A DNA stretch of 58,431 bases from a virus, in IMG/VR virus record IMGVR_UViG_3300035665_000039, positions 1 through 58,431 of that record. One strand, written 5' to 3'. A model generated the notes under the pieces. It saw only the letters and a program-made list of their open reading frames with translations. It ran no database searches and was not told where the DNA came from. The position numbers were made by a program, and so were the translations under genes. This document shows, in pieces, positions 9,023 through 34,703 of the stretch; the stretch's first letter is position 1; the number at the start of each line of letters is the position of its first letter.

Positions 9023-9056
9023 ATCTCAGGGGCTAAGTACCCCTGCGACCTCCTGT

Positions 9057-9307: not shown

Positions 9308-9311
9308 GGAG

Positions 9312-9863: not shown

Positions 9864-9867
9864 GAAA

Positions 9868-9877
9868 TATCACAATG
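9868..9877 (+). repeat. TATCACAATG motif copy (ATG is the start of 9875-10084)
   Basis: Exact 10-mer, preceded by AGGAAA. Confidence 0.95.
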
Positions 9878-10084
9878 CTTGTACAAGTCTTTTACGCCTT
9901 CATCCCTCTCGACTACCAGCGCCCTGGCGGCGTCTGGTGGTACCGCACTCTCACCCATGGAGAGGCAAACGAGTTCATCGAGACGATCAAGAGCTGTGCA
10001 ACCGCGATCCGGTTGTCGACTCGTTTCGTTGTGCAGGACCCCGACAACATCAAACCCCCGGCGGACGCCGCCATCATCAAGTAA
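9875..10084 (+). CDS. hypothetical protein (69 aa, MLVQVFYAFIPLDYQRPGG...)
   Basis: Internal ATG of the 9734-10084 ORF, supplied by the motif. Confidence 0.55.
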   Translation: MLVQVFYAFIPLDYQRPGGVWWYRTLTHGEANEFIETIKSCATAIRLSTRFVVQDPDNIKPPADAAIIK

Positions 10085-10097
10085 ATAGGAGAACGAT

Positions 10098-10364
10098 ATG
10101 AAGTTTGAATCAAAGAACGAACCAGCAGAACGCATCAAGCAGCCAGTCTTCGTGCTGCATGGCATCGCCTACTTGCCCAGCTACGACAAGCCCCATCGTT
10201 GGATCGGGCCCGGCCCCCGGCAGACGCGCTCGACCTACACAACGCTCGAGCTCCTCGAGGCCCAGGCCGAGCTCAAGTCTCACCCTCTCTGGCCGCGGTT
10301 CTGGATTGACGAACAAGCGATCGCGATCATCAACGGGCAGGCCGTCGCCGAAGGGGTCAACTGA
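10098..10364 (+). CDS. hypothetical protein (88 aa)
   Basis: ORF with AGGAGAA upstream. Confidence 0.6.
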   Translation: MKFESKNEPAERIKQPVFVLHGIAYLPSYDKPHRWIGPGPRQTRSTYTTLELLEAQAELKSHPLWPRFWIDEQAIAIINGQAVAEGVN

Positions 10365-10624
10365 TGGCCTTCATTGTTCGCGATAACGAGATCGTTCCAA
10401 TCCCTATCCAGCCTGGTAAGCGCGTGAAGATCGGAAGCTCGTACGAGCCGCCCGCGGTCAACTACGTCGAGTACGACCAGCTATGGGTGCAAGACATCAT
10501 GGCCTTCGGGAAGACGCCCTGGTCGTGGATTCGCTGGAAGGTCCCTGAGTGGATCTTCTGGTTCGTCTGCTGGTCTTCGTTTGCCTACGCGCTAGGCGTT
10601 GTAGCGAAGAGGTACTGGCAATGA
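10364..10624 (+). CDS. hypothetical protein with C-terminal hydrophobic segment (86 aa)
   Basis: TGATG overlap with the upstream gene. The segment WIFWFVCWSSFAYALGVV looks like a transmembrane helix. Confidence 0.55.
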   Translation: MAFIVRDNEIVPIPIQPGKRVKIGSSYEPPAVNYVEYDQLWVQDIMAFGKTPWSWIRWKVPEWIFWFVCWSSFAYALGVVAKRYWQ

Positions 10625-10911
10625 GCATCGATGCGATGAAGAAAGCCTGCAGCGTGATGGCCAATGCGCGCGATTACATTGGCGCCAGCGAACCGGAGCC
10701 GTGGCCCATGGAGCAGCAGTACGACGAGCTCCAGGACGCGATCAACATGCTAGCAAGAGCCATCAAAGAGGCAGAAGAGCGTGAATGGGTTGGGCTGACG
10801 GATGAGGAAGCGGACGAGTATTGGGATGAAAGCGTAAGCACGGGGTGTCGATTGTCTTTTGGCATGGGCGTCGATTATGCAAACAAAGCTCTAAAGGAGA
10901 AGAATACATGA
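10621..10911 (+). CDS. hypothetical acidic protein (96 aa)
   Basis: Internal ATG 10621 with an ATGA overlap. Confidence 0.55.
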   Translation: MSIDAMKKACSVMANARDYIGASEPEPWPMEQQYDELQDAINMLARAIKEAEEREWVGLTDEEADEYWDESVSTGCRLSFGMGVDYANKALKEKNT

Positions 10912-11099
10912 GTAACGCCGTTTTTCCCGACCCCCGAAAGCCTAGCAAGCTATTTCCACCTAACGGCCCGTTTGCGCCTCACCGTTGCGCTATCTGTCAA
11001 GGGAAATTTGAGGAGGGCCAGCAGTTTTACAACTATGGAGAAGGTCAGGTTGTTCACACGGCTTGCCGATTTCTTTTGCCAAAGGAGAAGAACACATGA
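10908..11099 (+). CDS. hypothetical Cys-containing protein (63 aa)
   Basis: ATGA overlap. Contains CAICQG...HTAC. Confidence 0.5.
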   Translation: MSNAVFPDPRKPSKLFPPNGPFAPHRCAICQGKFEEGQQFYNYGEGQVVHTACRFLLPKEKNT

Positions 11100-11130
11100 C
11101 ACGAGACGACATCAGAGCAAGGGGTGAGCA

Positions 11131-11406
11131 ATGAGTAAACACACACCGGGGCCGTGGTACATCGACCCGATTAAAGCGCACGCCAACGGTAACCGCCGGA
11201 TCATGGCTGAACAATGCACGCCGGTTGCGGTAGTGCCGGACCATTTAGTTGCGGACGCCCGCCTGATCGCCGCTGCGCCTGATCTGCTGGAGGCGTTGCA
11301 GCAGGTTGTCCACGAATGGGACACGAACCCAAACGTAATCACATACGCTGAATTGATGCGTGCATCCCGCGCCGCCATCGCTAAAGCGACTGGGGGTGAG
11401 GGATGA
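11131..11406 (+). CDS. hypothetical protein with HTPGPW N-terminus (91 aa)
   Basis: HTPGPW...ADARLIAAAPDLLEAL is a pattern I recognise from many phage hypothetical proteins. A 12-codon mini-ORF (11096-11134) precedes it with an ATGA overlap. Confidence 0.6.
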   Translation: MSKHTPGPWYIDPIKAHANGNRRIMAEQCTPVAVVPDHLVADARLIAAAPDLLEALQQVVHEWDTNPNVITYAELMRASRAAIAKATGGEG

Positions 11407-11416
11407 CCGGAGCCTC

Positions 11417-12370
11417 TCAAACCGGCGCCCCTCGAAAGTACGCCGTGCCGTCGATTGTCTCGACTAGCTCAGGCATCAAGAGTTTGCCATTGTGATACGT
11501 CAAGACAGCAAACCCGGAGCACCACGGCACCGGGTTGTCTTCAATGTAGCGAAACGCCTTGCTATCAGGATCGGCCAGCATGCCTGTAGATACACCGTAT
11601 CGACGGCCGCGGTAGTCGCCCCAAGGTTTGACTTCAAGCAAATGCGTGTGGCCGGTGATGGCGTTCAGGCCTGACTTGAGCGTGTTGTTGTAGCCGCTGT
11701 GAATCCCGGAGTGCTGCATGCGGTGCTTGATCATGGTGTTTTCGTTGACGGCTAGCGACCAGCTAACAGTCCACTCGGGTATGTGATCAGCGAGCCTGGT
11801 GCCGGAAATGTCTCGGTACTCAGGCACCTGCCCTGCCAGGCGCTTGTCAAATCGAATGTCATGGTTGCCAACGGTCCGATGCAAGATCGTTCCCAGTCCT
11901 TTGCAGGCCTTGACGATTTGATCCATGTGCCATTGCACGGCCTCGAGCTCTTCCTTCAGTGTGGCCTTCGGGCTCCAGTCCTCCGGCCCGTATCGACTGA
12001 TCGTGCCCCCATCGAGGATGTCGCCGTTCGCGACCACAAGCTGCGGTTTGAGTCGCTTGATCAGCTTGAGCATTGCCTTGAACGCAGGGCTCGACTCTTG
12101 CGGCATGAAGTGGGCATCCGAGAAGACAATTACAACCCCTTCAATCTCGGCAACGCTGCGGATCCTGTCTTCCTTGTGAAGAATCGTGCGTCGCCCCAAC
12201 CTTTGGTCATTGTGTGCCGGAAGCTCAATGTTTAATCGAGCCTCAATGGAATTCCGGCGATGTAAGACCGCTCGTTCGGCCATCTCAAGTTCTTTAGCAA
12301 CCAACTTAGCACTGCCAAGCCTGTTCCATAAGTCAATGAAATCCTGTTCAGGAACCTTCGGCTTAGCCAT
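11417..12370 (-). CDS. Calcineurin-like metallophosphoesterase with N-terminal HTH-like region (317 aa)
   Basis: Motifs VIVFSDAHF, GDILDG, GNHD and GHTHL. Lone minus-strand gene inside a plus-strand block. GGAG with a 6-nt spacer before ATG 12370. Confidence 0.7.
   Translation of the reverse strand: MAKPKVPEQDFIDLWNRLGSAKLVAKELEMAERAVLHRRNSIEARLNIELPAHNDQRLGRRTILHKEDRIRSVAEIEGVVIVFSDAHFMPQESSPAFKAMLKLIKRLKPQLVVANGDILDGGTISRYGPEDWSPKATLKEELEAVQWHMDQIVKACKGLGTILHRTVGNHDIRFDKRLAGQVPEYRDISGTRLADHIPEWTVSWSLAVNENTMIKHRMQHSGIHSGYNNTLKSGLNAITGHTHLLEVKPWGDYRGRRYGVSTGMLADPDSKAFRYIEDNPVPWCSGFAVLTYHNGKLLMPELVETIDGTAYFRGAPV
11488..11497 (-). repeat. TATCACAATG motif copy inside the phosphoesterase CDS (encodes YHNG)
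   Basis: Exact 10-mer on the minus strand. Confidence 0.95.
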
Positions 12371-12401
12371 CTACTGCTCCAAAATCTAAAAAGCTGTGCG
12401 G

Positions 12402-12415
12402 CTTATATCACAATT
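12402..12415 (-). promoter_or_regulatory. Candidate extended -10 (TGATATAAG) for the phosphoesterase gene, overlapping the plus-strand variant TATCACAATT
   Basis: Read directly. No good -35. Confidence 0.3.
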
Positions 12416-12462
12416 CGCTTATATATGGAATGAAGCACGTTCGCACCACGGCGATCGGCCGT

Positions 12463-12492
12463 TTGACATCGATATCACGCTTGTGATACTCT
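12463..12492 (+). promoter_or_regulatory. Promoter TTGACA-N18-TACTCT with perfect operator TATCAC-GCTT-GTGATA (12473-12488)
   Basis: Consensus -35 and a perfect palindrome in the spacer. About 65 nt upstream of ATG 12557. Confidence 0.6.
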
Positions 12493-12556
12493 TTGTCTGT
12501 CGGTTGATTGATCGACACCGACCCGGCGGTTCCGGGCGCTCCCAAGGGGACACAAC

Positions 12557-12742
12557 ATGGCACTTCAGATCGAAATCAAAACTGTCTACGGCGAGGTCAA
12601 GTACTACCCCGTCAACGACGCAGCCAAGACTTTTGCCGCGATCGCCGGCACCAAGACCCTCAGCATCGACAACCTCAAGCGCATCAAGTCGCTCGGCATC
12701 GCCATCGAGTACGTCGAGGCCCTCGCCTTCGCCCGCGTCTGA
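12557..12742 (+). CDS. hypothetical protein (61 aa)
   Basis: First ORF after the 12463 promoter. Confidence 0.55.
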   Translation: MALQIEIKTVYGEVKYYPVNDAAKTFAAIAGTKTLSIDNLKRIKSLGIAIEYVEALAFARV

Positions 12743-22628: not shown

Positions 22629-23052
22629 GCGCTGGCTACAGAACTGCGGCAAGGAGCCGAGCCCGGAGAATCTGTCGGTCCAGATCGGCTGCCACATCGA
22701 GGAGATGTGCGAATTCTTGCGAACGCTTGAATGCGTCGACATGCTAGCCAGCAAGGATTTGCGTAATGCTATCCACGACCTCGAGTACATCGGCTCGCTC
22801 GCCAAGTCCCGAACCAAGATGATCGTGTTCAAGGAAGGCGCCAGGGAGGCCGCATTGGACGCGCTGTGCGACGCAGACGTCACGGGTAATGGTGTGGCTT
22901 ATCTGGCCGGCATGAACAAAGCCTTGGCCGATCTGATGGTTCTCAAAGCCAACGACGAAAAGCTGGTCGATGGCAAGCCAGTGATATTGCCGGGAGGCAA
23001 GATCGGCAAGCCCGAGGGCTGGAAGCCCCCGGACCTGTCGCCCTACGTCTAG
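22603..23052 (+). CDS. MazG-like nucleoside triphosphate pyrophosphohydrolase (149 aa)
   Basis: Has an EExxE motif (HIEEMCEF), DALCDADV, and the C-terminal ANDEKL..GKP....GKIGKPEGWKPPDL typical of phage MazG-like proteins. Confidence 0.6.
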   Translation: MGSNFLRTKRWLQNCGKEPSPENLSVQIGCHIEEMCEFLRTLECVDMLASKDLRNAIHDLEYIGSLAKSRTKMIVFKEGAREAALDALCDADVTGNGVAYLAGMNKALADLMVLKANDEKLVDGKPVILPGGKIGKPEGWKPPDLSPYV

Positions 23053-26000
23053 GGTTTGCGGGGTGCCTCAAGGCTCTTGAGGTATTCCCGGTTCACCTCG
23101 GTGGCCATCTGGTCACGCGCGACCAAGATCTTGCGGCGCTCGAGCGTCTTCTGAGCCTCGGTCATCTTCTCGTCCCGAATCACCTGAATCTCAGCCTTGC
23201 GCATCTGCGAGATCGCATTGTCGTAGGCGTCGGCCAGTGAGGCCAGGCCAAGCAGTCGCTTCTCGTCGTCGGTCAGCTTGGGCTCGAGTCCGACGCGCGC
23301 CTGCTGCTTGACCTCATCGACCACCTTGCCGATCTCGCGGCTACGTTCGCCTGCGCTGCGGATGTTGGCAGCCTCGTCTACCTCGCCATAGAACTTGTTC
23401 AGCACGGGGATCTTGGCCGCCTTGATGTCCTTGTCGTCGCCTGTCATGGCAAGAATCGAGGAGCCCATCTGCTCGATGAACGAACCCAGGCCGCCCGTCG
23501 TTGCGCTGATCAGGGTCTGGATGGTTCCAGGCGTGACCGAGGTCTCCACGCCTGCGATGCTGCCAGGCTTGGCCTCGTTGCCGCCGCCGAGTCGGTTGAG
23601 CGCAGCGGCAATTTTTGCCGGCACCGTTCCCTGCGAGCTCGTGAACATGCGCTCGGAGTCGGGCTTCGTGTCGAACGGCGAGCGCTCGGGCGAAGACCTC
23701 GTGCCGAAGGTGTTGCGCTCGGACACGAGCTGGATCGGCAGGTCAGCGATCGTGGGCATCGCGGCCAGCAAGACCTGGACGCCATCGGTAGGATCGAACG
23801 ATCCGCCGAACGGGTTGATCGAGCCAAACACGACCGAGGTCATGTGCAGCGCTGCCTTGGTGGGTGTCAGGCCGCGCCGCGGGTCTTCTTGGTTGCGGAC
23901 GCTATCAGCAATGACATACCCCAGGTTCGGAAAGATGTTGAATCCGAACTGAACCGGGATCGTGAAGTAACGACCGCGCTTGCCCACGCGCTGGATACCG
24001 TCGGCCAGGGGTTCGCCGGGCGGCAGCATGATGACCATGTTGCGCTCTTTGACGTAGCCGGGGATCTTGTCCCAGTAGGCTTCGCCGTCGTCGTCCTCGC
24101 CCCCTGCAGAAGCCCCGTAGAAGGCCAGCATGGCGCCGATACCGGCCACCCCTGCCATAGCCCCAGCCACAGCCGGCGAGCGCAGCACGCGCGCGAATTG
24201 GGCCGTTCCTTGGACCGCTGCGTTGTAGAAGAGGTACAGGTTGTTGAGCGCCCCACCCCACTCACCCTTGCGGTTGAAGTTGGTCGTGCCGTTCTTGGCG
24301 AGCAGAGCTGCCTGCACGCGGGTCCTGCCGCTTTGCTTGGCCGCGGAGTAGAGCGCGAACCGGGTTGCATTCTCGGACGCGGCACCCAGGAACTCGAGCG
24401 CCTTGAGCGTGAGCCTGGCCAGCTTGTAGGTGCGGGCTGCCTTGATGCGCTCGATCGCGCCGCGGGGCTTGGCGCCAGCGGCAAGCATCTCGTTGCGCAG
24501 GTCCTTCTCGATGTCCTCGAGGCCGCGGATATAAAAGCCGCCCGTGATCCCGCCAGCGTTGCGGAACTCCTGGTAGAGCTGACTGGTCTGGGCGCCGAGC
24601 TCGGACTTCGAAGACTGCACAAGCGCTGCGCCGTAAGAGGCCAGGTACCGGGCAAGACCTTTGGGGCCGAGCTCCGCAAGCGCAGCAGTTGTACCCGACC
24701 ACAGCGCGTCGCGCGGAATGTTGATTGCTGCGAAGGCTGGGTTGTACCGGGTGAGCATGTTGCGCATCCAGTTGTTCCACCAGCCCGACATGGCCACGAC
24801 GGCACGCTCGAATCCGCTCGTCTCGTCCTTCCATGCCTGACGCAAAGCGCGCGCAAGATCCGGGTCAGCAAGCTTGATATAGACCTGCTGGCCACCGACC
24901 TTGACGCCGATCGTGTCGTCGCCCTTTTCGATCTGCCTGGTGTACTGCACAAGGCCGGTCGCCTTGTTGAATGCCGGCTTGGTGCGCTCGACGTCCACGT
25001 CCCACAGGTCGGGATCGGGGTTCGACAGCACGAAGTCCAGCAGCACCTTGCCGACGTCGTTCTTCTCGACGCGCATCACCACGCGCTCGTAGTCGCGGAT
25101 CACGTTCTCGATCAGATCGGACGCACGCGAGCGGCGGCCCATGGCGCGGATCGTTTCCTTGCCGCGGATGTTGACCCCGCGGCCAACGCCTGGACGCATG
25201 CGTCCTTCGTCGTCCACGTTCTCGAGGCCGCGCAGCGGGATGTAGTTCTGGTACGCACCATCGAGCGCGGTGAACTCGTCCTGCGTGATCAGACCTTCAG
25301 CGAGCATGATCTGGCGAGTGGTCGAAGCAATCGTCATCAGGTCGCGATGAAGCTCTTCGTACTGCTGCGCCTTGGGTCCAGACTGGACCTGCTGCAGGAT
25401 CGTGTTCGCGTCAGCAGTCTTCATGCCAGAGCCGCCGTCAGGCATGCGCTGGTTGATGCTGGCGATGTAGTCGTTACGCTCCTCGGCGTGCTTAGCGTAG
25501 GCATAGAGCGCGAGCTCATCGAGGTCGATGTCGTAGCTCACCGCCTTGTCGATCATGGGCTGCACGATCTGCGACTTGAAGTCGTCCATCGCAGCCTGGA
25601 TGCGGCCCGGCATGAGCGTGTTCGCGTCGTAGAAGTTTTGGGCTTCGGTGACAGTACCGCCCTGCTCCCTGACCGCATCGATCACGCGCTTCATGCGCAG
25701 CGCGTCGTCTTGCAGAGCGCGCCTTGCGTCGTCGGTCATCGATGGTGCGGGCAGACGGAAGCGACCGCCGATCACGCTCAGGCGTTGACGACGGTTGCTT
25801 GCTGTAATGTCCGGGTCTTTAGGGTCGAACGTGCCGCGGTTTCCACTGGCGGATTTGATCTGGGTGCTGTCAAAAGCAACGATGACTTGCTTGACGCCGT
25901 TCTCATCAACAGCGATCAGCCCGTCCACGGACCCGTCGGTCATTGCCCTGTCAAGTGCGTCAGCGCTGTATTCAGAAAAGGAAATGACTCGCGGGTTTTT

Positions 26001-29000
26001 CATACTGACAAACACGGGCATGACGTTGCCGCCATCGCCTGTTGCCATGGCGTTGGCATAGCTTTTGGATTCGCTTGCAAAGTAGGCGTCGCCAAACTTT
26101 TGACTCGGCCGGAACTCATTGAAGTCGTTGTTTGTCCCGTGATAAACCACCAGCGGCTTACCTTCTGCATCCACTACCTTGCTGTCGCCGAACCAGCGCT
26201 TGAACGCTGGCGTCTCAGTCTGCGCACGGTTGCTGAATGCAGGCGTATCGGCCAGACCTTGGGGCGAGGATTCGGCCCGGTAGTTATCGCCAATCCAGCG
26301 CATCAAGTCCATGTCGCTCTTGACCTTGCGATCAGCAATCATGGAGCGCAGTTTCGGCGCCACGGCAGGCCACGGCGTGAAGAACTTATTGAACGGACGA
26401 CCAGCCTGTGATAACATCTGTGATGTGGATGCGCTGGGTGGAGTTACCGGGACAGGCCCGGAACGTTGAGATCCAGATTCATCCACCACCCCAACATCCG
26501 GTCGACCTGTCAGTGCAGGCTTGGCCAGCGCCAGATCCACATAGCGAGCGGCGCCCTCGTTGATCCTCCGAAGAATCGTGTCCGCGTTGCGATCGCCTGG
26601 ATCGACAATGCGGCGCTGGTACGCCGAGTTGATGTACGCGTTGCTGCGCGAATTCGAATCGGCCACCGTGATCGGAACGAAGATCGCGCCAATGTCACCC
26701 GTCATGGGTAGCACGAGCTCCTTCTCGTTTGGCGACTGCCTGCTCTGCAGAACAAGCGCCGGGCGATACAGGCCACGGACAAACTGCTCAGGCGTGATGC
26801 TGGCGAACTCCTCGGCGTGCTTGTCGACAAACACCTTGCGGATGATGCTCGGTGCGATCTGCAGGTCCTGGGTGCTGGCGCCGAGCATGTTCATCACATG
26901 CGGCAAACGACCCAAGACGACGGGCTCGGGGTTCAAGCCGTAAGACGGATCGGCGCGCAGTCGATTGATCGCACGCGTGAGCGCCCTGGCGCCGTTGCGG
27001 ATGTCCGCCTCGAGCGCGCTTTGTGGCGAAACCTTGGGTAGCCTGCGGCGCTCGCTTGCGGCGATACTGTCCTCTTCGTCAAGCTTGCGGGCGAGCTCGT
27101 CCTTGTACATCGGTGCGGTCGATGACCAGACCGGGCTGTCTTCGAACTGGGCGTAGACCTCCGGCATCATGGCCTTGATCATCCGCGACCACTCGGTGCC
27201 GTCCATGCGGCCCGCAGGCAGCGAACGGTTGGCCGCAATCTTCTCGGCGTCGCTGAGCACACGCTCAGCAGGCGGCACAATGTCGTCCGTACGCATGCGA
27301 GTCTGGCTTCCGAGCTGCTGGACGCCGACCATGTGTTTCCCCAGCAGGACTGCGACGCCCGAGGGACCTGCGTCGCGGGTCATGTAGCCATCGAACCCGG
27401 CATTCATGACCGCAAGCTCGAAGGCATTCGCGCCGCGGTTGTTGCGCGCCAGGCGCTGGCTGTCCGCACCCATGTCGTACAGGTTCTGCAGCCGGACGCG
27501 GTGTGCAAAACCGCCGACGCCGGCCTCTGGGTTGATGCCGGTACCGCGGTCGAGGTAGAAATAGACACGCTGCTTCAGCCGCGGGTCTGAGCCTTCCAAA
27601 CGGGCCATCTCGGCACCCTTGAGACCGGTGCCGTAGGCAGTGCTGAGTAGTGTGGTGCGGGACTGTCGGCTGTAGTGGTAGCCAACTGCAGAGGTGGCGC
27701 CCTCTCGGGGGGCACCATACTCAGGGATTACTCCCCGAACTTCCTCTTCAGAGCTTCTTCCAACGCCTGCTGCGCTGGTTGCATCGGATCGGTTGCTGAA
27801 CTCGATTCCTTCGGCTCGGAGCTCTTGCTCGAGGGCTGCGGTCGCTTCTGACCGAAGATCACGAGCCCGTTGCCGAAGTACCGCTCTGCTTCCTCGTCCG
27901 TCATTGGTCGAACTGGCATAGTCGTACTCCTGTTTGCTTGGGAATGCCGCGAATACTTCACGGGTCAGAACACTATAAGCTTTGTTAAGTTTTTGGTCAA
28001 CAAGAATCGCAAGCTCGCTCGTCGGAACGTCCGAGAAGTTGAGCACCGTCATGCCGCCGTTCGCGTACGACTGGCCGCCAATCGGCTTCTCGCCGTTGAC
28101 TTCGATCTCGCGAAGCTGGTTGTAGATCACCTCGATCTCCTGGGGTGTCTTGTCGCCCACCTGGATCACGAGCGCGGTGTTCTTGTCGCCGCCTTTGAAC
28201 TCTTTTGGCGAGACCACGACCATCGAGTCCTGGGCGAGCACGAAGCCGAGCATCTTGGAGATCTCGACCGGATCGCCCTTGTTCAGCAATAGCGCAAACG
28301 AGGGGTTCGTGTCGTCCAGATAACTGCCGACCTGCTCTGCCAGGATGCCGTCGGTATTGAACTCGGCGAGCACCCGCGGCACGATAGTCCGCGCAACGCG
28401 ATCGCTGATCGCAAGACGCTGCGCAGGATCCAGTGATCGCCAGGTCTCGGTGAGGGCGGCGTTGTTCGGGTCTGGAGCGACCTCGAAAACAACGGCGCGA
28501 CGCTTGGGGTCTAGTCTTTCTTGGGCGAGCTGGGTGCGCTCGTATCGGTCGCGGATGAATCGCTCCCGCTCCCCAGTTTCGAGCGGGCCAGATCTCCCAG
28601 CTTCTTGACCAGCGCTTTGCGATCCTTGTCCGACATCTGCTGCATTCGTTTGTCGAATGCTTCTTGATCCAGATTCGGCTGCTGTGCGGAGTCGTTGTTC
28701 ATCGTATCCCTCTTGCTTGAGAACCTTCTCGGTTGCGCCTGCGTAGTCCTGGCTGGTCACGCTGAGCTTGACGCCCATCGCCTTGTAGAGCTCCTGCTCA
28801 GGGTACCAAATGAGTGCCTGCATGGCAGCCGGCGGGATCCGCTGGCCGTAAGCCTTCTCGACCTGAGCCACTGCCTTGCGCACGACTTCGCGCAGCAGGC
28901 GACGCTCGCCACCGCTGGCGGGTACGTCCCTCGGCTTGTCGAGCGACTGCACCATCGTGTCCGAAGCGAGCACGAGCTGCGACTTCTTGCGGGTGCCAGC

Positions 29001-32000
29001 GTCGAATTCGGCGCGGTTGTTCTTGAAGTCTTTCTCGTGGGCCTTGCCGACTTGGCGAGCGAGCTCGATCGCAGCATCCTGATCTTCTCGGGCGCGTGCC
29101 ACGAGCTCTGCATCGAACTGATCGGCGTACACGCCATCGGTGCCAGTCTGATCGAGGGCGCCGCGCAGGCGCGAGAGTTGCGCTGAGAACTTCTCAGCAT
29201 CGAATGCGCGCAGGCTACCGGTCAACCGGCCGATGGTCCGCATGAACCACATGTCCATGGTGACCGGCTCGAAGTTGCCGTTCAGGTTGGAGTAGAAGCC
29301 GAATCCGATCTTCGGACCGAAGACAGACGACCCGAGCACCATCTCATCGATCAGCTCGCCGCCAGGCTCGAAGCCCGCACGGTTGAGCTCACCGATCGTG
29401 AAAGGAGTCACGAGGAACTGACGGAACAAGTCAATGCCCATCTCATCGATGAGCGCGTTGGCCAGCTTGAAGTTGCCGACCATGACCGATGCCGAGTCGC
29501 CCTCGCCCACCTCCGGGTACTTGCCGGTCTTGCGGTAGGTGTCGTACTGACGCATCGTGAACTTGAGATTGTTCTCGACGTTCAGGCCTTGCGAGGTGAT
29601 CGCCATCGCGAGGCGGAAGATCATTTGAGCGTTGCGGTCGCTCTGCAGCTCGGGGTACTTGACCGCGGCCATCGCAAGCGTGCGGGCAATCGTCTCGTCG
29701 TACCACTCGAGCGCATTGCCCGCGGAGCGGATCGCGGCCAGCGTCTCGGCTGCCATCAGCTTGGCGACGGTGTCCTGGTCCTCGGGGTTGGCGATGTCCA
29801 GCAGTCGCAGGCCAGAAGCGCGGCGACGGTCCTCGAGGAACTTGACGACCTCCGGGATGCCGCCCTTGAGCGGTGCCACGAAGGCGCGATCCTTGGGTTC
29901 GCCGGTCTGGTACTCGAGGGAGGTGGAAGCGAGCTCAGCGTCGCTGAGGCCTAGCTTCTTCTTGATCGCGGAGGCGATCTTCTTGTCGACCTTGGGCTCC
30001 TTCTCGAGCACCTCAATGACCTTGTCTGCATCATCGGAGCGGAAGGTGATGCGGTCGCCATCAACCTTGAATGGCTTGGCGACATCGCGCGCCAGGAAGC
30101 GGATGCGGTCGGCATCCTTGGTAAAGACAATGCGACCCTTTTCGTCCTTGGTGAACTTGTACCTGCCGGCGCTGCTGCTTACGGCGTCTCTTTGCCCGAC
30201 AGATCCGCTCCGTCCTTGAGCGCTTCCTGGAAGGCCTTGTCCATCTTCTGCCGCCAGAGCTTCGCCTCGAGCTGCTCCTGCGGCGTCAGGGAATCCTTCG
30301 ATGGTTGCTTGGTAGATGGCGTCGTCGATACGGCCGGCTTGGTATTCGGTTTCGGTTGCATTGAGTAGTCTCTCCTTCAGTCCAGATTTTATCACAGGCG
30401 TGATACTTTGGAGCGGCAAAAGCGCCGCCTTGCCCGGACCGCGCGAGTTGTCGATCGCATAGAGGGCGAAGTTGGGGTTGTCACCGAATTCATCCTGTAG
30501 CTTTCGCACTACTTCGCTCGAGCCCGCATGGCCTTTGACCAAAGCATCGAGCGGAACAGCGCGGCGCGTCTTCATGGCGCGCGTCAGCACGCCATTGACC
30601 AGCGCCTCCTCGGGTTCGCGGTAGATGTATGCGATGACCACACGCTGGCCGCGGTCGAGTACGCGTTGGACGTTGCGCCTTGCTTTGTCGTAGCTCGAGA
30701 GGGTGCCATCCAGGATCGTATGAACGCTGTCCTGCACCTTGCTGAGAAGCGTATCGGCAGAGGACTTGCCGGCCCCGCCGCCGCCGGCCATGAAGAGCAC
30801 GCTCGACTTGCGCGGTGCAGCATCGACGCGAGCTTCGAACATGCGCTGGGTCATGTTGCTGGCCGCATCGTGAACCTCGGCAGCCCGAGTCTTGTCGGCG
30901 CGGTAATCGGGCGAGAGCTCGCGGACCAGGTCGGTGTCGATCAGCTTGCCGTCTTGAGCGCCAGGCAGTGCGCTGTACTCAGCAACCGCGGCGTCGAAGT
31001 CGCCGTCAATCCTGGCCTGCAGCTTGTCGTTGATGTTGCCGCCAGCCTTGTTGCTGAACATGAAGTCGGCTTTGTCGCCGTAGACCGGATTCTTGGCCAG
31101 GACCAATGGGCCGATCTGGATGACTTCGTCAGCGGAGATCACGGGCTCCATGGTTGAGCGATCGTAGAAGTACGAGTGCCGCTCGGGGTCCATGCCGACC
31201 TGTACCCAGTCCTTGGACTTGAGCGCCTGGTCGGCTTTCATCTTGGCTTCGGCCGAGCTCGTAGGCTTCCAGTCGCCCATGATGGTGGCGATCGTGCCTT
31301 TGTTTGCGCCTGCGGCGATCTTGGCTGCAGACTTCTCGAGCATGCCGAACCTGACATTGGTTACTGAGGCAACCGGCTCGTAGCCGATCACCGTGCCTGC
31401 ACCGAAGGACTTGCCATCGGGGCGATGCACGCTGACAACCCAGGCGCCGTGCTCGGAGTAAGACGGAATATCGAGGCGCAGTTGAGCAGCCTCGCCGAGC
31501 TTGAATACCTGGCTTGGCAGACCGAACTTGGCGGCCTTTTCTGCCGACTGCCCGCGGCCATTGGCAAGCGCGAACTTGGCAGCCTCGGGGGTAACCGGAT
31601 CCGGCACCGTTTCGTAGGGTTCGACGGGCTTGTACTCGTTGACCAGCCGGTCGTAGTCCTGCTTGGTGATCTCACCAGCCTGCAGCGCTCGCATGCCTTC
31701 CTGTAGCTCGGGCGTGCGCTTGATGACGTCCTTGAAATCCATCCCGATACGCGAGCGCGAAGACTCGGCGACGTCGGTCGCGACGTCGGGCTTGAGGCCC
31801 TGCGCCTTCATGGCTTCGGCGTACGCGTCGGTAAGAAGACTGCGAGCTCGCTCGACGTCCTTGATGTACTTGGACACGAACTCGTCGCCGTACTCCTTCT
31901 TGGCGCCGGTCACGATCTGAGTAAGTTTGCTCAGGATGACCTTGGCCACCTCGGCAAACTCCTTGTTGCCCATCTTCGTGCGCAGCTCTTCCCAGAAGTC

Positions 32001-34703
32001 GGCACGTTTGCTGACCGCCTGGGCCATCAAGGCCGGGGCCTCTTCATCGAACTTGGCGTCGTCGTACCCGAACTCGGCTTGGAACTCGCCCTTGCGTTCT
32101 TGGTTGAACACCTCGAGCAGTGCAGCGTTGAGTTGCTTGCGACGCTCTGCAGGTAGGCCATGCAAGCCTTCGTGCATGGCAATCGACAGCGGCGCGTCAT
32201 CCGCATTGGCGTCGATGAAGATGTGCTTGCCGCCCAGGCGGTTGATGAACCCATTGGGCATGCCGGCCGGGTCACCTTTGACCGCACGGACCACCGTCAG
32301 CGTGTTGCCCATCAGGCGGGCTACCGTGCTTGCCAGACGCTGCGAATCGCTCAGGTCCGCAGGCGAGATCGCTTCGACGGTTACACCGCGTCGCTTCTCG
32401 AGCTGGGTCTGGACGTTCTGAAGCGTTGTCGCGGGCGCGGGTAGCGCGAGTCTCAGTCCGGCACGTTCAGAATCAGACAGTTGGACTTGCGCTGCGGGGG
32501 CTTGGCCTCCTGCAACAATGCCGCCTTGTGCGGCACCCATTGCTTGCTCTTGTTGCTGTCCTTGCGTTTCTGCTTGCTGGGCTTGAGTGGCTTGAGTGCC
32601 AAGGCTGCTCTCCTGAGGATAGCCGGCCAGTCGGAATTTGCCGTTGGGCATCTGCTCGATGGACCACGACAAGTCTTTGAACATGCGCTGCCGGCTGGGT
32701 AGCGCTTGCTCCGCATCCATGAGCGTGACGTATCCGTCACCGCGTCGGCCCGTCCAGATCTCGGTCGGGACTACAGCATTGTTATCTTGTCCGATCGCGG
32801 CTTCCGTGCGGGCCAGCAGGTCCGCATCCGATGCGCGAGGGATCGGGCTCGTGCTCGTCAGATTGGCAAGTCGTTGAGGGGCTCCGCCTCGAAGAGCATC
32901 ATCTTGTTGATCGGCCCCTCGAATTCCTGCGAGAGCTCCACCCGGCACCCCGGCGGCGAGATCAAGATCACGTCCTGCAGCATCCACGCCTCGTTGGTCG
33001 AGAGCACTCGTGCGTCCAGCGCCTCCTGCAAGTGGGGGTAGAGTTGAGCCTGGCGTGCTGACATCACTACCTCCGATGATGGCCGGCGCATCGGGCACCG
33101 GAATGACGATATCCACCAGGCCGGCGCGCTGAGTCGCTGAACCTGGCTCAGTGAAGTTGGTGAGGCGTGCTGCTTGTGCGGCCTCCTGTGCGCGACTGGC
33201 GGCACCCAGCACGCTGAAAGGTGCGGAGGTAACGAGCGCCTGGCCCATCGCCTCGGGGACGCCCTCGGTTAGCTTGACGTTCGGGTCGACTGTCCTTGCG
33301 ATGACATTTGAGACAGCTTGTGTACCACCTTCTTCAGCCTGTTCGCCAAGCAAGTCTCGGATAATGGTTTTCCCCACGCCGGAAGCAGTAAGAGCTTGCG
33401 CAGTGGCCGTGCCCAAACCTCGAGTTGCGATCGCAGCTTCGGCGCCCGCAAAACCAAGCAACCCAAGCGGGAAAGCTACAAGCGCAGCCATTCTGGCTTT
33501 AGTGGTTGAGAGGTCTTCAATCGCTTGCTGCGGCGTCTTGCCCTCGGCAACCATGCGTTGAAAGTCAGGGTTCTTTTCCCAGACTGATAGCGGGGTTTGC
33601 GTTGGGTCGGTGAGCTTTTCATAGACACTGCCAGCAGCATCGCCGCCAGCCATGGTCATAGCCGCAGCTCTGCCCCCTGCCACCGCTCCGGTTGCACGCG
33701 CGCCTGCTTGTATTGCTCCGCCGGTGATCGCGTCACTGAAAGCTACTGCGGGGCTCACACGGCTCGCTACGTTGACACCAGCACCACCAGCTGCGGCACC
33801 CAGGCGCGAAGCGCCCAAGACACCCAGGAACATGGGCACTTGCTTGGCGGCTTCGGAGATGGTGAGCGCGGGGCTCGTGACGAGCTGCACGACCGTTGCC
33901 GCGTACTTGTCGAAGAAGCCCTCTTCCTGCTGCACACGCTGGCGCAACTGGTCGCGCTGAGCTTTGAGCACGTCGCTCTCGGCGGCCTGCCATTCCTTCT
34001 GAGTCTGGCGAAGCGTCTCAGCGATGTCGCTACTCGGGGCGATGATGTTGATCGGGAGCTGAGCCAGGGAGATGGCGCCTTGCGATAGGCCCGAAAGCGT
34101 ATCGATTGCCCACTCGCCTGCGCTTCGAAACTCGTCCGCCTTCGCATCGCGGACCATGTCCTGTACGACTGGCCGATTCGTGCGCTGAATCATGTCGTCC
34201 AGCGACGGAACCTTCTGCTCTTCCATCGACTGAGCGACCTTGGCGACGATCGGACTCGAGGGCCTGGCTCGACCTGCGCGGACGTCGGCCGCCTGTTGTA
34301 CGGTCTGCGTGCTGATCGGCCCGGCACCCAGCGATAGGCGCTGATCGATCGACGCTTGGCGCTGCTCGGCGGTGGGCTGATAGCCCTCCATGACGCTGGG
34401 CTTGGGCGCCGGCTTGAATACGTCAGTGAGGCGCGCAATCAGTCCGCGATTGTCCGCGGGAGGAGGCGTGCCTTGCATCGATGTGGCCGCGTCGCCGAAG
34501 TCAGTGCCGGCGATCTCAGGCGCCTGAGGGCGCTTGATCGAGGTGTCTACCAGGAACTGGCCGCGTGCCAGGTCGATGTCTTCGGTTGGAACTTGAGGAG
34601 CGATGACCTCATCAAAGTATTGACGACGCGCCTCTTCCTGCTGTTCGTAGGAGAGGGCCTGGAATGCGGAACTTGCCGCTACGTCAGACCACTTCTTTGC
34701 CAT
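23049..34703 (-). CDS. Giant multidomain (polyvalent-type) virion protein, 3,884 aa
   Basis: An uninterrupted 11.6-kb ORF. Recognisable modules: HExxH (MHEGLH, 32160-32177); a zeta-toxin-like P-loop kinase (GGGGAGKS, 30762-30785); an ART-like domain (FKRWFGDSKVVD...VVYHGT..., 25839-26204); and Gly/Ala-rich hydrophobic segments at both ends. Confidence 0.85.
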   Translation of the reverse strand: MAKKWSDVAASSAFQALSYEQQEEARRQYFDEVIAPQVPTEDIDLARGQFLVDTSIKRPQAPEIAGTDFGDAATSMQGTPPPADNRGLIARLTDVFKPAPKPSVMEGYQPTAEQRQASIDQRLSLGAGPISTQTVQQAADVRAGRARPSSPIVAKVAQSMEEQKVPSLDDMIQRTNRPVVQDMVRDAKADEFRSAGEWAIDTLSGLSQGAISLAQLPINIIAPSSDIAETLRQTQKEWQAAESDVLKAQRDQLRQRVQQEEGFFDKYAATVVQLVTSPALTISEAAKQVPMFLGVLGASRLGAAAGGAGVNVASRVSPAVAFSDAITGGAIQAGARATGAVAGGRAAAMTMAGGDAAGSVYEKLTDPTQTPLSVWEKNPDFQRMVAEGKTPQQAIEDLSTTKARMAALVAFPLGLLGFAGAEAAIATRGLGTATAQALTASGVGKTIIRDLLGEQAEEGGTQAVSNVIARTVDPNVKLTEGVPEAMGQALVTSAPFSVLGAASRAQEAAQAARLTNFTEPGSATQRAGLVDIVIPVPDAPAIIGGSDVSTPGSTLPPLAGGAGRTSALDQRGVDAAGRDLDLAAGVPGGALAGIRGADQQDDALRGGAPQRLANLTSTSPIPRASDADLLARTEAAIGQDNNAVVPTEIWTGRRGDGYVTLMDAEQALPSRQRMFKDLSWSIEQMPNGKFRLAGYPQESSLGTQATQAQQAETQGQQQEQAMGAAQGGIVAGGQAPAAQVQLSDSERAGLRLALPAPATTLQNVQTQLEKRRGVTVEAISPADLSDSQRLASTVARLMGNTLTVVRAVKGDPAGMPNGFINRLGGKHIFIDANADDAPLSIAMHEGLHGLPAERRKQLNAALLEVFNQERKGEFQAEFGYDDAKFDEEAPALMAQAVSKRADFWEELRTKMGNKEFAEVAKVILSKLTQIVTGAKKEYGDEFVSKYIKDVERARSLLTDAYAEAMKAQGLKPDVATDVAESSRSRIGMDFKDVIKRTPELQEGMRALQAGEITKQDYDRLVNEYKPVEPYETVPDPVTPEAAKFALANGRGQSAEKAAKFGLPSQVFKLGEAAQLRLDIPSYSEHGAWVVSVHRPDGKSFGAGTVIGYEPVASVTNVRFGMLEKSAAKIAAGANKGTIATIMGDWKPTSSAEAKMKADQALKSKDWVQVGMDPERHSYFYDRSTMEPVISADEVIQIGPLVLAKNPVYGDKADFMFSNKAGGNINDKLQARIDGDFDAAVAEYSALPGAQDGKLIDTDLVRELSPDYRADKTRAAEVHDAASNMTQRMFEARVDAAPRKSSVLFMAGGGGAGKSSADTLLSKVQDSVHTILDGTLSSYDKARRNVQRVLDRGQRVVIAYIYREPEEALVNGVLTRAMKTRRAVPLDALVKGHAGSSEVVRKLQDEFGDNPNFALYAIDNSRGPGKAALLPLQSITPVIKSGLKERLLNATETEYQAGRIDDAIYQATIEGFPDAAGAARGEALAAEDGQGLPGSAQGRSGSVGQRDAVSSSAGRYKFTKDEKGRIVFTKDADRIRFLARDVAKPFKVDGDRITFRSDDADKVIEVLEKEPKVDKKIASAIKKKLGLSDAELASTSLEYQTGEPKDRAFVAPLKGGIPEVVKFLEDRRRASGLRLLDIANPEDQDTVAKLMAAETLAAIRSAGNALEWYDETIARTLAMAAVKYPELQSDRNAQMIFRLAMAITSQGLNVENNLKFTMRQYDTYRKTGKYPEVGEGDSASVMVGNFKLANALIDEMGIDLFRQFLVTPFTIGELNRAGFEPGGELIDEMVLGSSVFGPKIGFGFYSNLNGNFEPVTMDMWFMRTIGRLTGSLRAFDAEKFSAQLSRLRGALDQTGTDGVYADQFDAELVARAREDQDAAIELARQVGKAHEKDFKNNRAEFDAGTRKKSQLVLASDTMVQSLDKPRDVPASGGERRLLREVVRKAVAQVEKAYGQRIPPAAMQALIWYPEQELYKAMGVKLSVTSQDYAGATEKVLKQEGYDEQRLRTAAESGSRSIRQTNAADVGQGSQSAGQEAGRSGPLETGERERFIRDRYERTQLAQERLDPKRRAVVFEVAPDPNNAALTETWRSLDPAQRLAISDRVARTIVPRVLAEFNTDGILAEQVGSYLDDTNPSFALLLNKGDPVEISKMLGFVLAQDSMVVVSPKEFKGGDKNTALVIQVGDKTPQEIEVIYNQLREIEVNGEKPIGGQSYANGGMTVLNFSDVPTSELAILVDQKLNKAYSVLTREVFAAFPSKQEYDYASSTNDGRGSRAVLRQRARDLRSEATAALEQELRAEGIEFSNRSDATSAAGVGRSSEEEVRGVIPEYGAPREGATSAVGYHYSRQSRTTLLSTAYGTGLKGAEMARLEGSDPRLKQRVYFYLDRGTGINPEAGVGGFAHRVRLQNLYDMGADSQRLARNNRGANAFELAVMNAGFDGYMTRDAGPSGVAVLLGKHMVGVQQLGSQTRMRTDDIVPPAERVLSDAEKIAANRSLPAGRMDGTEWSRMIKAMMPEVYAQFEDSPVWSSTAPMYKDELARKLDEEDSIAASERRRLPKVSPQSALEADIRNGARALTRAINRLRADPSYGLNPEPVVLGRLPHVMNMLGASTQDLQIAPSIIRKVFVDKHAEEFASITPEQFVRGLYRPALVLQSRQSPNEKELVLPMTGDIGAIFVPITVADSNSRSNAYINSAYQRRIVDPGDRNADTILRRINEGAARYVDLALAKPALTGRPDVGVVDESGSQRSGPVPVTPPSASTSQMLSQAGRPFNKFFTPWPAVAPKLRSMIADRKVKSDMDLMRWIGDNYRAESSPQGLADTPAFSNRAQTETPAFKRWFGDSKVVDAEGKPLVVYHGTNNDFNEFRPSQKFGDAYFASESKSYANAMATGDGGNVMPVFVSMKNPRVISFSEYSADALDRAMTDGSVDGLIAVDENGVKQVIVAFDSTQIKSASGNRGTFDPKDPDITASNRRQRLSVIGGRFRLPAPSMTDDARRALQDDALRMKRVIDAVREQGGTVTEAQNFYDANTLMPGRIQAAMDDFKSQIVQPMIDKAVSYDIDLDELALYAYAKHAEERNDYIASINQRMPDGGSGMKTADANTILQQVQSGPKAQQYEELHRDLMTIASTTRQIMLAEGLITQDEFTALDGAYQNYIPLRGLENVDDEGRMRPGVGRGVNIRGKETIRAMGRRSRASDLIENVIRDYERVVMRVEKNDVGKVLLDFVLSNPDPDLWDVDVERTKPAFNKATGLVQYTRQIEKGDDTIGVKVGGQQVYIKLADPDLARALRQAWKDETSGFERAVVAMSGWWNNWMRNMLTRYNPAFAAINIPRDALWSGTTAALAELGPKGLARYLASYGAALVQSSKSELGAQTSQLYQEFRNAGGITGGFYIRGLEDIEKDLRNEMLAAGAKPRGAIERIKAARTYKLARLTLKALEFLGAASENATRFALYSAAKQSGRTRVQAALLAKNGTTNFNRKGEWGGALNNLYLFYNAAVQGTAQFARVLRSPAVAGAMAGVAGIGAMLAFYGASAGGEDDDGEAYWDKIPGYVKERNMVIMLPPGEPLADGIQRVGKRGRYFTIPVQFGFNIFPNLGYVIADSVRNQEDPRRGLTPTKAALHMTSVVFGSINPFGGSFDPTDGVQVLLAAMPTIADLPIQLVSERNTFGTRSSPERSPFDTKPDSERMFTSSQGTVPAKIAAALNRLGGGNEAKPGSIAGVETSVTPGTIQTLISATTGGLGSFIEQMGSSILAMTGDDKDIKAAKIPVLNKFYGEVDEAANIRSAGERSREIGKVVDEVKQQARVGLEPKLTDDEKRLLGLASLADAYDNAISQMRKAEIQVIRDEKMTEAQKTLERRKILVARDQMATEVNREYLKSLEAPRKP
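25839..26204 (-). other. ADP-ribosyltransferase-like domain of the giant protein (polyvalent-protein ART type)
   Basis: The motif FKRWFGDSKVVDAEGKPLVVYHGTNNDFNEF...GDAYFASE...VMPVFVSMKNP matches what I recall for ART domains of phage/plasmid polyvalent proteins. Confidence 0.55.
27728..27919 (-). CDS. Embedded +1-frame small ORF C (63 aa, MPVRPMTDEEAERYFGNGLVIFGQKRPQPSS...QQALEEALKRKFGE)
   Basis: AGGAG (27931-27927) with a 7-nt spacer before ATG 27919. GC3 is about 71% versus about 46% in the giant frame (hand count). Its own promoter is at 27972-28000. Confidence 0.5.
   Translation of the reverse strand: MPVRPMTDEEAERYFGNGLVIFGQKRPQPSSKSSEPKESSSATDPMQPAQQALEEALKRKFGE
27972..28000 (-). promoter_or_regulatory. 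Internal promoter TTGACC-N17-TATAGT inside the giant gene
   Basis: -35 at 28000-27995, -10 at 27977-27972, exact 17-nt spacer. Sits in a short AT-rich island of an otherwise GC-rich gene, about 50 nt upstream of ORF C. Confidence 0.55.
28511..28702 (-). CDS. Embedded +1-frame small ORF B (63 aa, MNNDSAQQPNLDQEAFDKRMQQMSDKDRKALVKKLGDLARSK...)
   Basis: GAGGG (28712-28708) with a 5-nt spacer before ATG 28702. GC3 is about 71% versus about 43% in the giant frame. Confidence 0.45.
   Translation of the reverse strand: MNNDSAQQPNLDQEAFDKRMQQMSDKDRKALVKKLGDLARSKLGSGSDSSATDTSAPSSPKKD
30179..30361 (-). CDS. Embedded +1-frame small ORF A (60 aa, MQPKPNTKPAVSTTPSTKQPSKDSLTPQEQLEAKLWRQKMDKAFQEALKDG...)
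   Basis: AAGGAGAG lies upstream (GGAG 30375-30372, 10-nt spacer) of ATG 30361. GC3 is about 78% versus about 44%. Starts right after the zeta-like domain. Confidence 0.45.
   Translation of the reverse strand: MQPKPNTKPAVSTTPSTKQPSKDSLTPQEQLEAKLWRQKMDKAFQEALKDGADLSGKETP
30386..30405 (-). promoter_or_regulatory. Perfect operator TATCAC-AGGC-GTGATA (30390-30405) overlapping an extended -10 (TGATAAAAT, 30394-30386) inside the giant gene
   Basis: Read directly. Same operator/-10 geometry as the 9057 and 12463 promoters. No good -35. Confidence 0.45.
30430..31010 (-). other. Zeta-toxin-like P-loop kinase domain of the giant protein (approximate limits)
   Basis: The sequence KLIDTDLVRELSPDYRAD...AAEVHDAAS...VLFMAGGGGAGKSS...VVIAYIY fits the pattern of zeta-toxin/AAA_33-type kinases. 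Confidence 0.55.
32858..33064 (-). CDS. Embedded +1-frame small ORF D (68 aa, MSARQAQLYPHLQEALDARVLSTNEAWMLQDVILISPPGCRVELSQEFEGPINKMMLFEAEPLNDLPI)
   Basis: GGAGG (33074-33070) with a 5-nt spacer before ATG 33064. GC3 is about 88% versus about 36% in the giant frame over the same bases. Ordinary, non-junk composition. Confidence 0.55.
   Translation of the reverse strand: MSARQAQLYPHLQEALDARVLSTNEAWMLQDVILISPPGCRVELSQEFEGPINKMMLFEAEPLNDLPI

Follow-up and report, generated by a model that had tools for sequence, protein, structure and literature searches.

Here we have analysed a 58,431-nt stretch of viral DNA (positions 1 to 58,431 of IMG/VR virus record IMGVR_UViG_3300035665_000039; hereafter the window) in which a single gene of 3884 codons encodes a giant, predicted polyvalent virion protein. 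Comparison with related loci indicates, with high confidence, that five genuine genes overlap the linkers of this gene on the same strand and in the +1 frame, each with its own Shine–Dalgarno (SD) sequence, start and stop. Their predicted products of 49-68 amino acids belong to a modular family and are inherited as cassettes with the domains that precede them. A sequence-only reading of the window had noticed four of these open reading frames (ORFs) and proposed that they were either real overprinted genes or the scars of very recent cassette fusions. The first of these proposals is upheld here by conservation of starts, SD sequences and stops and by frame-specific purifying selection.

Nested ORFs and their signals

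The giant gene and the five ORFs nested within it are as follows.

23049-34703, minus strand: giant polyvalent virion-protein gene (predicted), 3884 codons, whose frame is open across all five nested ORFs in the ORF list
32858-33064, minus strand, +1 frame: ORF-D, 68 amino acids, ATG start; GGAGG-5 nt-ATG, SD at 33070-33074
32453-32602, minus strand, +1 frame: ORF-F, 49 amino acids, TTG start; AGGAGA 6 nt upstream, SD at 32609-32614
30179-30361, minus strand, +1 frame: ORF-A, 60 amino acids, ATG start; SD AAGGAGAG at 30370-30377
28511-28702, minus strand, +1 frame: ORF-B, 63 amino acids, ATG start; GAGGG-5 nt-ATG, SD at 28708-28712
27728-27919, minus strand, +1 frame: ORF-C, 63 amino acids, ATG start; AGGAG-7 nt-ATG, SD at 27927-27931

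All five lie wholly within the giant gene at an offset of 1 (mod 3), with their own start and stop codons. Recomputation reproduced the coordinates, lengths, frame and SD strings that the sequence-only reading had given for ORFs D, A, B and C; its count of four was incomplete because ORF-F starts with TTG and was overlooked. JGI/IMG lists the exact ORF-D protein as a 'hypothetical protein' encoded by three contigs, the longest of 62,829 nt, so at least one annotation pipeline has already called this ORF.

Base composition separates the nested ORFs from their surroundings. Across the whole giant gene, the G+C content at codon positions 1, 2 and 3 is 0.65/0.46/0.74. The corresponding values for the small frames are 0.62/0.36/0.87 (D), 0.53/0.37/0.86 (F), 0.57/0.44/0.77 (A), 0.56/0.42/0.72 (B) and 0.59/0.45/0.70 (C). 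Over the bases of D, A, B and C, the third-position G+C content (GC3) of the giant frame falls to 0.36, 0.44, 0.42 and 0.45, respectively, which by binomial arithmetic is 5 to 7 standard deviations under 0.74. The earlier hand counts of a higher GC3 in the small than in the giant frame were therefore sound (0.70-0.87 versus 0.36-0.45). A sliding GC scan marks these four stretches as +1-phased and, of the 28 open stretches in the +1 frame that reach 50 codons, the nested ORFs alone combine a low second-position G+C content (GC2) with a high GC3; the remaining stretches have a GC2 of about 0.8, this being position 3 of the giant codons. Two further segments with a +1-phased G+C signal were considered as nested genes and rejected. 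Substitutions in an Ala/Gly-rich segment (giant residues 281-430) fall mainly at giant codon position 3 with no dip in synonymous rate, while residues 2691-2740 show normal giant-frame substitutions or no conserved +1 ORF.

The predicted product of ORF-F is MALKPLKPSKQKRK...RKSNCLILNVPD, its +1 stretch corresponding to giant residues 700-749 and ending in RKSNCLILNVPD before the stop. The last codons of this ORF overlap a conserved giant-frame motif, LSDTERAGL, and the DNA at this point is nearly invariant, as would be expected where both frames are constrained. ORF-A is a composite, in which the second half is a conserved 'tail' module (...GxxLxGxETP). Since a stand-alone relative of the zeta-toxin-like kinase domain can be aligned as far as giant residue 1506, the first half of ORF-A overprints the last helix of this domain, which explains both its low complexity and the residual constraint on the giant frame.

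Conservation across related loci

An IMG/VR scan with the giant protein recovered 79 related loci with 38-100% identity. Families of the nested ORFs were then collected by tblastn with four of the peptides, followed by searches with hidden Markov models (HMMs) built from the matches. HMM members were found in 69 loci for ORF-B and 18 for ORF-C, and in 13 sources for ORF-A and nine for ORF-D (the latter two counts include the window). Every one of these members starts with ATG, occupies a short open stretch and sits in the +1 frame, never in frame, inside an ORF of thousands of codons. For an unbiased sample, loci were picked by giant-frame homology to the preceding domain alone and then checked for a +1 ORF at the domain end. 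ORF-A was present at the end of the zeta domain in 13/13 loci and ORF-C at the end of the domain at residues 2062-2261 in 21/21. ORF-B followed the domain at residues 1800-2000 in 71/71, comprising 68 HMM members with ATG and three divergent ORFs starting with GTG, TTG and ATG. The TTG start and SD sequence of ORF-F are kept in six loci (the window, L001, L007, L008, L017 and L018), and the ORF-D family has 15 invariant residues. Family lengths are 47-68 codons, with a few longer members, and even at 30-40% peptide identity the ORFs keep their start, stop and length. The arrangement spans about 70 contigs and loci of 40-68% GC.

Initiation signals are conserved alongside the ORFs. Among the distinct sequences upstream of the starts, the share with a predicted SD duplex of -6 kcal/mol or lower is 100% for both D and A, 77% for B and 58% for C, against a background of 7.6% for 4274 other +1-frame ATGs. 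We also performed a blind scan, in which all SD-led ORFs of 40 codons or more nested in any of the big ORFs were clustered irrespective of family. The clusters conserved to at least the level of the host frame were B, C, D, A, F and one more (G), and no others; clusters rich in Arg, Ser, Pro and Leu scored 0.00, bar one with three members. Family G is a sixth nested +1 family, with products of 56-58 amino acids (MEALTLQQVKTYQSLQRQLD...) and an SD sequence with ATG or GTG, found at 5097-5267 of L014 and in 17 other loci (e.g. L020, L033 and L050). It lies upstream of a domain homologous to residues 2357-2465 of the giant protein and is absent from the window. The existence of this family indicates that the nested-gene phenomenon reaches beyond the five ORFs of the giant gene.

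INPHARED contained no close relative, and only two loci were found among GTDB genomes. Four phage records, Limnohabitans phage DC33 among them, gave distant matches to the domain at giant residues 1570-2000; DC33 is the sole isolate with this ORF-B-associated domain (29% identity). The 39-kb DC33 record (PQ492659, our L081) encodes a distant giant-protein relative of 3125 amino acids at 3355-12732; its +1 and +2 frames gave no match to the D, A, B and C family HMMs. The taxonomy line of this record, Inoviridae, does not fit.

Selection on the two frames

Raw off-frame conservation in tblastn is not specific, as ordinary conserved domains also give off-frame matches; we therefore relied on frame-specific tests. 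In the flanking domains, diversity at giant codon positions 1, 2 and 3 is 0.30-0.38, 0.22-0.30 and 0.58-0.65, respectively. Within the overlaps, diversity at giant position 3 drops to 0.29-0.40. In A, B and C, variation is highest at giant position 1, which is position 3 of the small codons, while in ORF-D it is lowest at giant position 3. When seven long giant genes were scanned for synonymous rate, the rate over D, F, B and C sank to 0.1-0.5 of the expected value, in regions where giant-frame amino acid identity is low.

Four-class substitution counts, following the logic of OLGenie, were made on alignments guided by the small or by the giant frame. The dNN/dSN ratio is 0.64-0.80 in all five ORFs whichever frame guides the alignment, with values of 0.77-0.80 for ORF-D and 0.68-0.70 for ORF-B. 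In contrast to these values, dNN/dNS is 1.04-1.27 for D and 1.03-1.08 for B, with 0.91-0.92 for C, 0.70-0.79 for A and 0.79-0.96 for F. Together these ratios indicate that the small frame is under purifying selection throughout and that the giant-frame amino acids are free or weakly constrained. A test of both frames across relatives had been suggested by the sequence-only reading; its outcome is synonymous suppression in the giant frame and constraint in the +1 frame.

The giant frame is nevertheless never closed. When each small peptide was held fixed and its synonymous codons resampled, the giant frame was expected to be open in only 1.6/54 cases for B, 0.4/10 for A, 1.1/16 for C and 2.1/8 for D, yet all were observed to be open. 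The converse expectation, for an open +1 frame, is 21/54 for B. Stand-alone homologues of the small genes, by comparison, have 2-15 stops in the would-be giant frame. Thus, over the nested ORFs the giant frame is mostly unconstrained spacer that is held open far beyond chance. The invariable use of the +1 frame may have a simple basis, as it places the freest position of the small codons (position 3) on giant position 1 and so would ease the avoidance of stops (T..). Taken together, the ORFs have their own starts and stops, are retained in distant homologues, carry initiation signals and are under purifying selection in the embedded frame, as expected of overlapping genes.

Co-inheritance of domains and nested ORFs

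Three of the nested ORFs trail domains that can be delimited by homology.

30363-31001, minus strand: zeta-toxin-like kinase domain (giant residues 1235-1447; Pfam and PDB), upstream partner of ORF-A
28704-29996, minus strand: domain of giant residues 1570-2000, function not assigned, upstream partner of ORF-B and the commonest domain across related loci
27921-28520, minus strand: domain of giant residues 2062-2261 (giant-frame homology), function not assigned, upstream partner of ORF-C

Within the related phage loci, giant-frame homology upstream of A, B and C stops exactly at the small ATG (residues 1446/1447, 1999/2000 and 2261, respectively). This agrees with the earlier observations that the ORFs divide the giant protein into modules, since they sit in inter-domain linkers, and that ORF-A begins right after the zeta domain. 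The sequence 3' of the small stop varies among loci: it may encode another domain, or the gene may end 47-63 codons further on. The upstream domain is thus fixed and the downstream domain variable, and across 105 loci-pairs the pairing of domain and ORF is without exception, though the downstream domains are shuffled.

An exchange of this kind is evident between the window and its relative L001. The block at 30179-31830 (giant residues ~960-1508, comprising an L5-gp82-like stretch, the zeta domain and ORF-A) has diverged, with identities of 62% for zeta and 39% for ORF-A, while flanking residues 1509 to ~2280 are 97-100% identical. As the right breakpoint coincides with the ORF-A stop, the zeta domain and ORF-A were exchanged together. 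These patterns show, at the level of sequence, that the unit of inheritance and recombination is a domain plus its trailing nested ORF; the small gene lies 3' of the domain and is co-inherited and exchanged with it, as in toxin-immunity systems. The linkers have no DNA repeats in common and no match to an Rfam family.

A modular family of small proteins

Database proteins built from the same pieces as the nested ORFs are 45-398 amino acids long, nearly all of them under 200. The pieces are as follows, with a further small domain also present among the stand-alone proteins.

'Head' module: N-terminus of ORF-C, MPVRxMTDEEAExxFGxGLVIFGQKRP (MPVRPMTDEEAERYFGxGLVIFGQKRP in ORF-C itself)
'Helical hairpin' module: equivalent to ORF-B (NLDQxxHDxWL...), DQxxHDxWL...LAxxLxxLxRxK
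'Tail' modules: AxEEALxKxF (ORF-C type) and its relative ...GxNLAGRDTP (ORF-A type)
NCLxLNxPD tail: as in ORF-F, also ending stand-alone protein P0001 and the ORF at 7616-8005 of L080

The head is always at residue 1, in about 25 database proteins. One stand-alone protein of 118 amino acids (P0044) combines head, hairpin and A-type tail, and the ORF-A tail is homologous both to this protein and to the tail of ORF-C. We have thus shown that the small proteins form one modular family, in which short modules are joined by disordered stretches rich in Ser, Pro and Lys. The QEAL-like motif that the sequence-only reading saw in all four of its ORFs is accounted for in part: homology was established between the tails of A and C, and was not convincing for B and D.

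No match for the small proteins or their stand-alone homologues was found in Pfam, PHROGs, NCBIfam or PADLOC, nor was there a match to the A and D family profiles in a PDB sequence search. An AlphaFold2 model of P0044 (30-row alignment; pLDDT 79, pTM 0.35) has no compact fold. A short helix leads through a disordered stretch to a confident helical hairpin (pLDDT >90), which is followed by a long helix, and a Foldseek search of the PDB with this model gave no match. The single-sequence model of ORF-D was uninformative (pLDDT 58).

The stand-alone genes are ordinary called genes with the same start Met, their own SD sequence and intergenic region, and no giant frame. On a bacterial-looking contig (L080, with seryl-tRNA synthetase, NUDIX and HTH genes nearby), the DNA at 6977-8005 shows homology to the linkers of C and F; stops interrupt the giant frame there, but the +1 ORFs remain unbroken and are longer (170 amino acids, and 129 amino acids ending NCLILNVPD). 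Stand-alone head-plus-hairpin proteins (L085 871-1212, L088 8001-8186 and P0059) lie in cargo regions of integrative elements or in defence islands. Neighbours of the stand-alone genes include integrase with AlpA and AAA_25, Prim-Pol/DUF3987, Metallophos and an Hhe/PDC-S37-like helicase-nuclease. A neighbour of 113 amino acids (MKLRCxDGDxAVITWD...) recurs in L083 and L085.

Possible role of the nested genes and alternative explanations

Two alternatives dispense with a separately initiated small protein, and both are very unlikely given the evidence above. Programmed +1 frameshifting from the giant frame, which the sequence-only reading had raised together with termination sites, would yield truncated giant proteins with special tails. 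The presence of an SD-like element just upstream of each site is reminiscent of prfB, and the conserved C-terminal motifs NCLILNVPD and LxGxETP could form functional ends of larger proteins, P0001 and L080 7616-8005 being examples. This explanation is, however, disfavoured by a canonical initiator (ATG, rarely GTG or TTG) at the homologous position, and a start codon with an SD sequence, in every locus tested, by a TGA directly before the ORF-D ATG in the +1 frame of L007 and L008, and by closure of the +1 frame 5-15 codons upstream in most loci. Moreover, visual inspection of the upstream contexts, in which no dedicated motif search was made, revealed no common slippery or stalling motif or giant-frame stop, and stand-alone homologues start at the same Met behind their own SD sequence and upstream intergenic region. 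Coupling by termination and reinitiation was also considered and rejected, as the small-ORF stops do not overlap giant-frame start codons.

Slightly more improbable still is the absence of any second protein, with the linkers being conserved as DNA or RNA (a recombination boundary or an RNA element) or representing recent fusion scars. The unspecific off-frame tblastn matches would fit such an explanation, as would the facts that the linkers are recombination breakpoints and that nucleotide diversity in the overlaps is not strongly three-periodic. However, small-frame-synonymous substitutions are 1.25-1.6 times as frequent as those changing both frames, with giant-only-synonymous changes not favoured. 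Start, stop and length persist at 33-40% peptide identity and over a GC range of 40-68%, a depth of conservation that excludes recent scars; junk nested ORFs behave oppositely; and stand-alone genes keep the small frame alone open. The lack of Rfam matches and of DNA repeats common to the linkers also argues against this explanation.

The role of the small proteins is a separate matter. Our tentative proposal is that they act as partners or neutralizers of the preceding effector domain, ORF-A with zeta being the clearest case; the sequence-only reading had already raised an antidote or chaperone function as a hypothesis. This proposal stems from the exception-free pairing of domains and ORFs, the joint divergence of zeta and ORF-A as a cassette and the active-looking zeta domain. 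Each SD sequence and start codon lies at the 3' end of a giant-frame domain and the stop just ahead of the next domain, such that ribosomes initiating at the nested codons would make proteins of 49-68 amino acids and ribosomes on the giant frame would read the same bases as stop-free spacer. In the proposed scheme, the small proteins would be made from the same late mRNA, beside the freshly synthesized domain, and might bind and neutralize or hold this domain until the giant protein is packaged; they would then be left behind or stripped off at ejection into the next host. Zeta toxins have a cytoplasmic target (established knowledge cited in PMC5512222). Stand-alone copies in integrative elements and defence islands could represent captured antidotes. 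A bolder version, in which a linker-borne +1 antidote follows each effector domain and neutralizes it co-translationally, and in which the modules have been captured by satellites, prophages and defence islands to disarm injected effectors, is speculative and rather improbable.

A stand-alone zeta relative bears on this proposal. In L089 (215-2733), a zeta protein of 351 amino acids, 33% identical to giant residues 1252-1506, is followed after 1 nt by a gene for a 137-amino acid protein and then by Sel1 and Rap1a-family genes, an arrangement resembling an effector-immunity locus. The small gene and Rap1a-family gene directly after zeta are in keeping with a partner role. There is no A-like +1 ORF in this zeta gene, that frame having stops, which indicates that ORF-A is not intrinsic to zeta genes.

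The principal competitor, which we judge rather unlikely, is that the nested ORFs are real but autonomous accessory genes (host-takeover, anti-defence or virion-associated) that use the linkers as free coding space, with domain coupling arising only from the overlap of SD sequence and start with the domain end. The distribution of the modules speaks for autonomy, as one family occurs over several linkers and is fused in stand-alone proteins of unrelated contexts, ORF-D in L026 has unrelated flanks and some effector domains lack a nested ORF. On the other hand, autonomous genes could equally sit between genes, so that four to five nestings in one gene need a reason, and neither the 105 loci-pairs without exception nor the swapping of zeta and ORF-A as a jointly diverged cassette is readily explained.

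Several confounders and contrary findings weigh against our own interpretation. The loci are phylogenetically related, so counts such as 71/71 are not independent events, and saturation of p-distances compresses the selection ratios. The coupling of domains and ORFs could be purely physical, because the SD sequence and start are written in the last codons of the domain and recombination can therefore cut only downstream. With respect to a partner role, there is one ORF family per upstream domain, yet the tails of A and C are homologous though their upstream domains differ, and the three modules, head, hairpin and tail, are also joined in single proteins encoded away from any polyvalent gene. 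The ART-PolyVal domain and an HExxH peptidase-like stretch have no trailing nested ORF, and in the family and structure databases searched the small proteins resemble neither epsilon antitoxins nor any other known protein in sequence or fold. Weighing all of these points, the combination of nested genes with a partner role stands, in our view, in even balance between being right and wrong.

The giant gene and its context

Pfam domains of the giant protein are as follows.

Giant residues 1328-1406: Zeta_toxin, 42 bits (cut-off 22)
Giant residues 2845-2959: ART-PolyVal, 72 bits (cut-off 31)
Giant residues 3544-3768: LPD38, 66 bits (cut-off 27)

Residues 1235-1447 match the Zeta_1 toxin structures PDB 6EPH/6EPG (E=1e-8) and contain a Walker A motif (GGGGAGKS); from its sequence, the zeta domain looks active. 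The protein falls with PHROGs families of 2800-3900 amino acid proteins, and genes for terminase, portal and major head protein are on the same strand. With three unrelated effector domains in one polypeptide (ART-PolyVal, LPD38 and Zeta_toxin), its sequence has the features of a typical polyvalent virion protein.

The segment at ~25800-26330 (giant residues ~2790-2960, ART-PolyVal) is a gap in the otherwise 86% identical gene of L001, which looks like domain gain, loss or replacement. An ORF of 855 codons with a GTG start lies antisense to the giant gene (23844-26411, plus strand), as do several similar long ORFs; these are presumably no more than the open antisense frames that commonly accompany a GC3-rich gene. 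At ~31955-32015 (giant residues ~896-916), giant-frame synonymous differences are 0.24-0.48 of expectation with high amino acid identity. No convincing nested ORF was found at these residues, and the suppression could be due to recent recombination or another element.

Comparison with known systems

Nested +1 genes are already known in phages (Rz1 in Rz, PhiX174 E in D), as are toxin-immunity cassettes. The spanin genes of phage lambda are a close precedent, with Rz1 lying wholly inside Rz in the +1 frame. As in this pair, the ORFs of the window are same-strand embedded +1 genes with their own starts, located in a low-complexity, tolerant part of the host gene; in Rz/Rz1, neither product is dispensable and both frames are retained. 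The giant gene differs in having five embedded genes in one 11.7-kb gene, each in an inter-domain linker and co-inherited with the upstream domain, and in that their products are not lipoproteins and have no assigned function. Overprinted genes are familiar from small phages and viruses, such as E within D and B within A of PhiX174 (PMC8227390). The nested ORFs resemble such genes in dual coding, in constraint that is specific to a frame and in the suppression of synonymous changes in the host frame. In classical overprinting, however, the host frame is constrained and ancestral and the new frame compositionally odd, whereas in the giant gene it is the embedded frame that shows a normal codon signature and bears the constraint, and the giant host frame is near-neutral spacer. 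Genome compression is also no obvious driver in a double-stranded DNA phage of ~60 kb.

The likeness to toxin-immunity cassettes of polymorphic toxin systems (PMC3482391) lies in a small gene directly 3' of an effector domain that is exchanged as a cassette, with lone homologues elsewhere resembling orphan immunity genes. Immunity genes of polymorphic toxins are separate ORFs after a single C-terminal toxin, whereas the present ORFs are embedded in the +1 frame of a read-through linker, several per gene; neutralization is hypothetical and modules are common to ORFs after different domains. MuF-type phage toxins offer a further comparison alongside the polymorphic toxins. In the epsilon/zeta systems (PezAT; PDB 6EPH), as with ORF-A, a small protein is encoded beside a zeta-type kinase domain. 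ORF-A differs in lying downstream of and inside the toxin gene rather than upstream, and half of it is of low complexity and overprints the C-terminal helix of zeta. Neither ORF-A nor its family profile has sequence similarity to epsilon/PezA in Pfam, PHROGs or PDB, and a relationship to epsilon is thus not indicated.

Iyer et al. (2017; PMC5512222) described the polyvalent proteins of phages and conjugative elements and discussed their packaging, injection and possible autoproteolysis. The giant gene follows this concept in joining disparate effector domains in one polypeptide encoded with virion genes. Overlaps, linkers and immunity proteins are not mentioned in PMC5512222, and the embedded genes add a layer to the concept. 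We found no description of genes embedded in polyvalent-protein linkers; as literature coverage was incomplete, this is absence of evidence. The new elements are multiple conserved genes in the spacers of one giant gene, selection on the embedded frame, a cassette logic and a new small-protein family. Since gene callers forbid long same-strand overlaps, such a nested layer will usually be unannotated.

Implications

We show that spacers within giant multi-domain genes of phages can serve as full coding space, with five genes in one gene and an arrangement shared by at least 70 environmental phage contigs. This is a clean natural case of a near-neutral but obligatorily open host frame with the constraint in the embedded frame, the reverse of textbook overprinting. 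The domain-shuffling unit in polyvalent proteins is a domain plus its trailing nested ORF, and an unannotated modular family is common to phage virion-protein genes and the cargo of integrative elements and defence islands. Finally, if the small proteins do act as partners or antidotes, this would explain how the producer cell survives while making a zeta kinase and other effectors, and would suggest a new kind of anti-phage defence.

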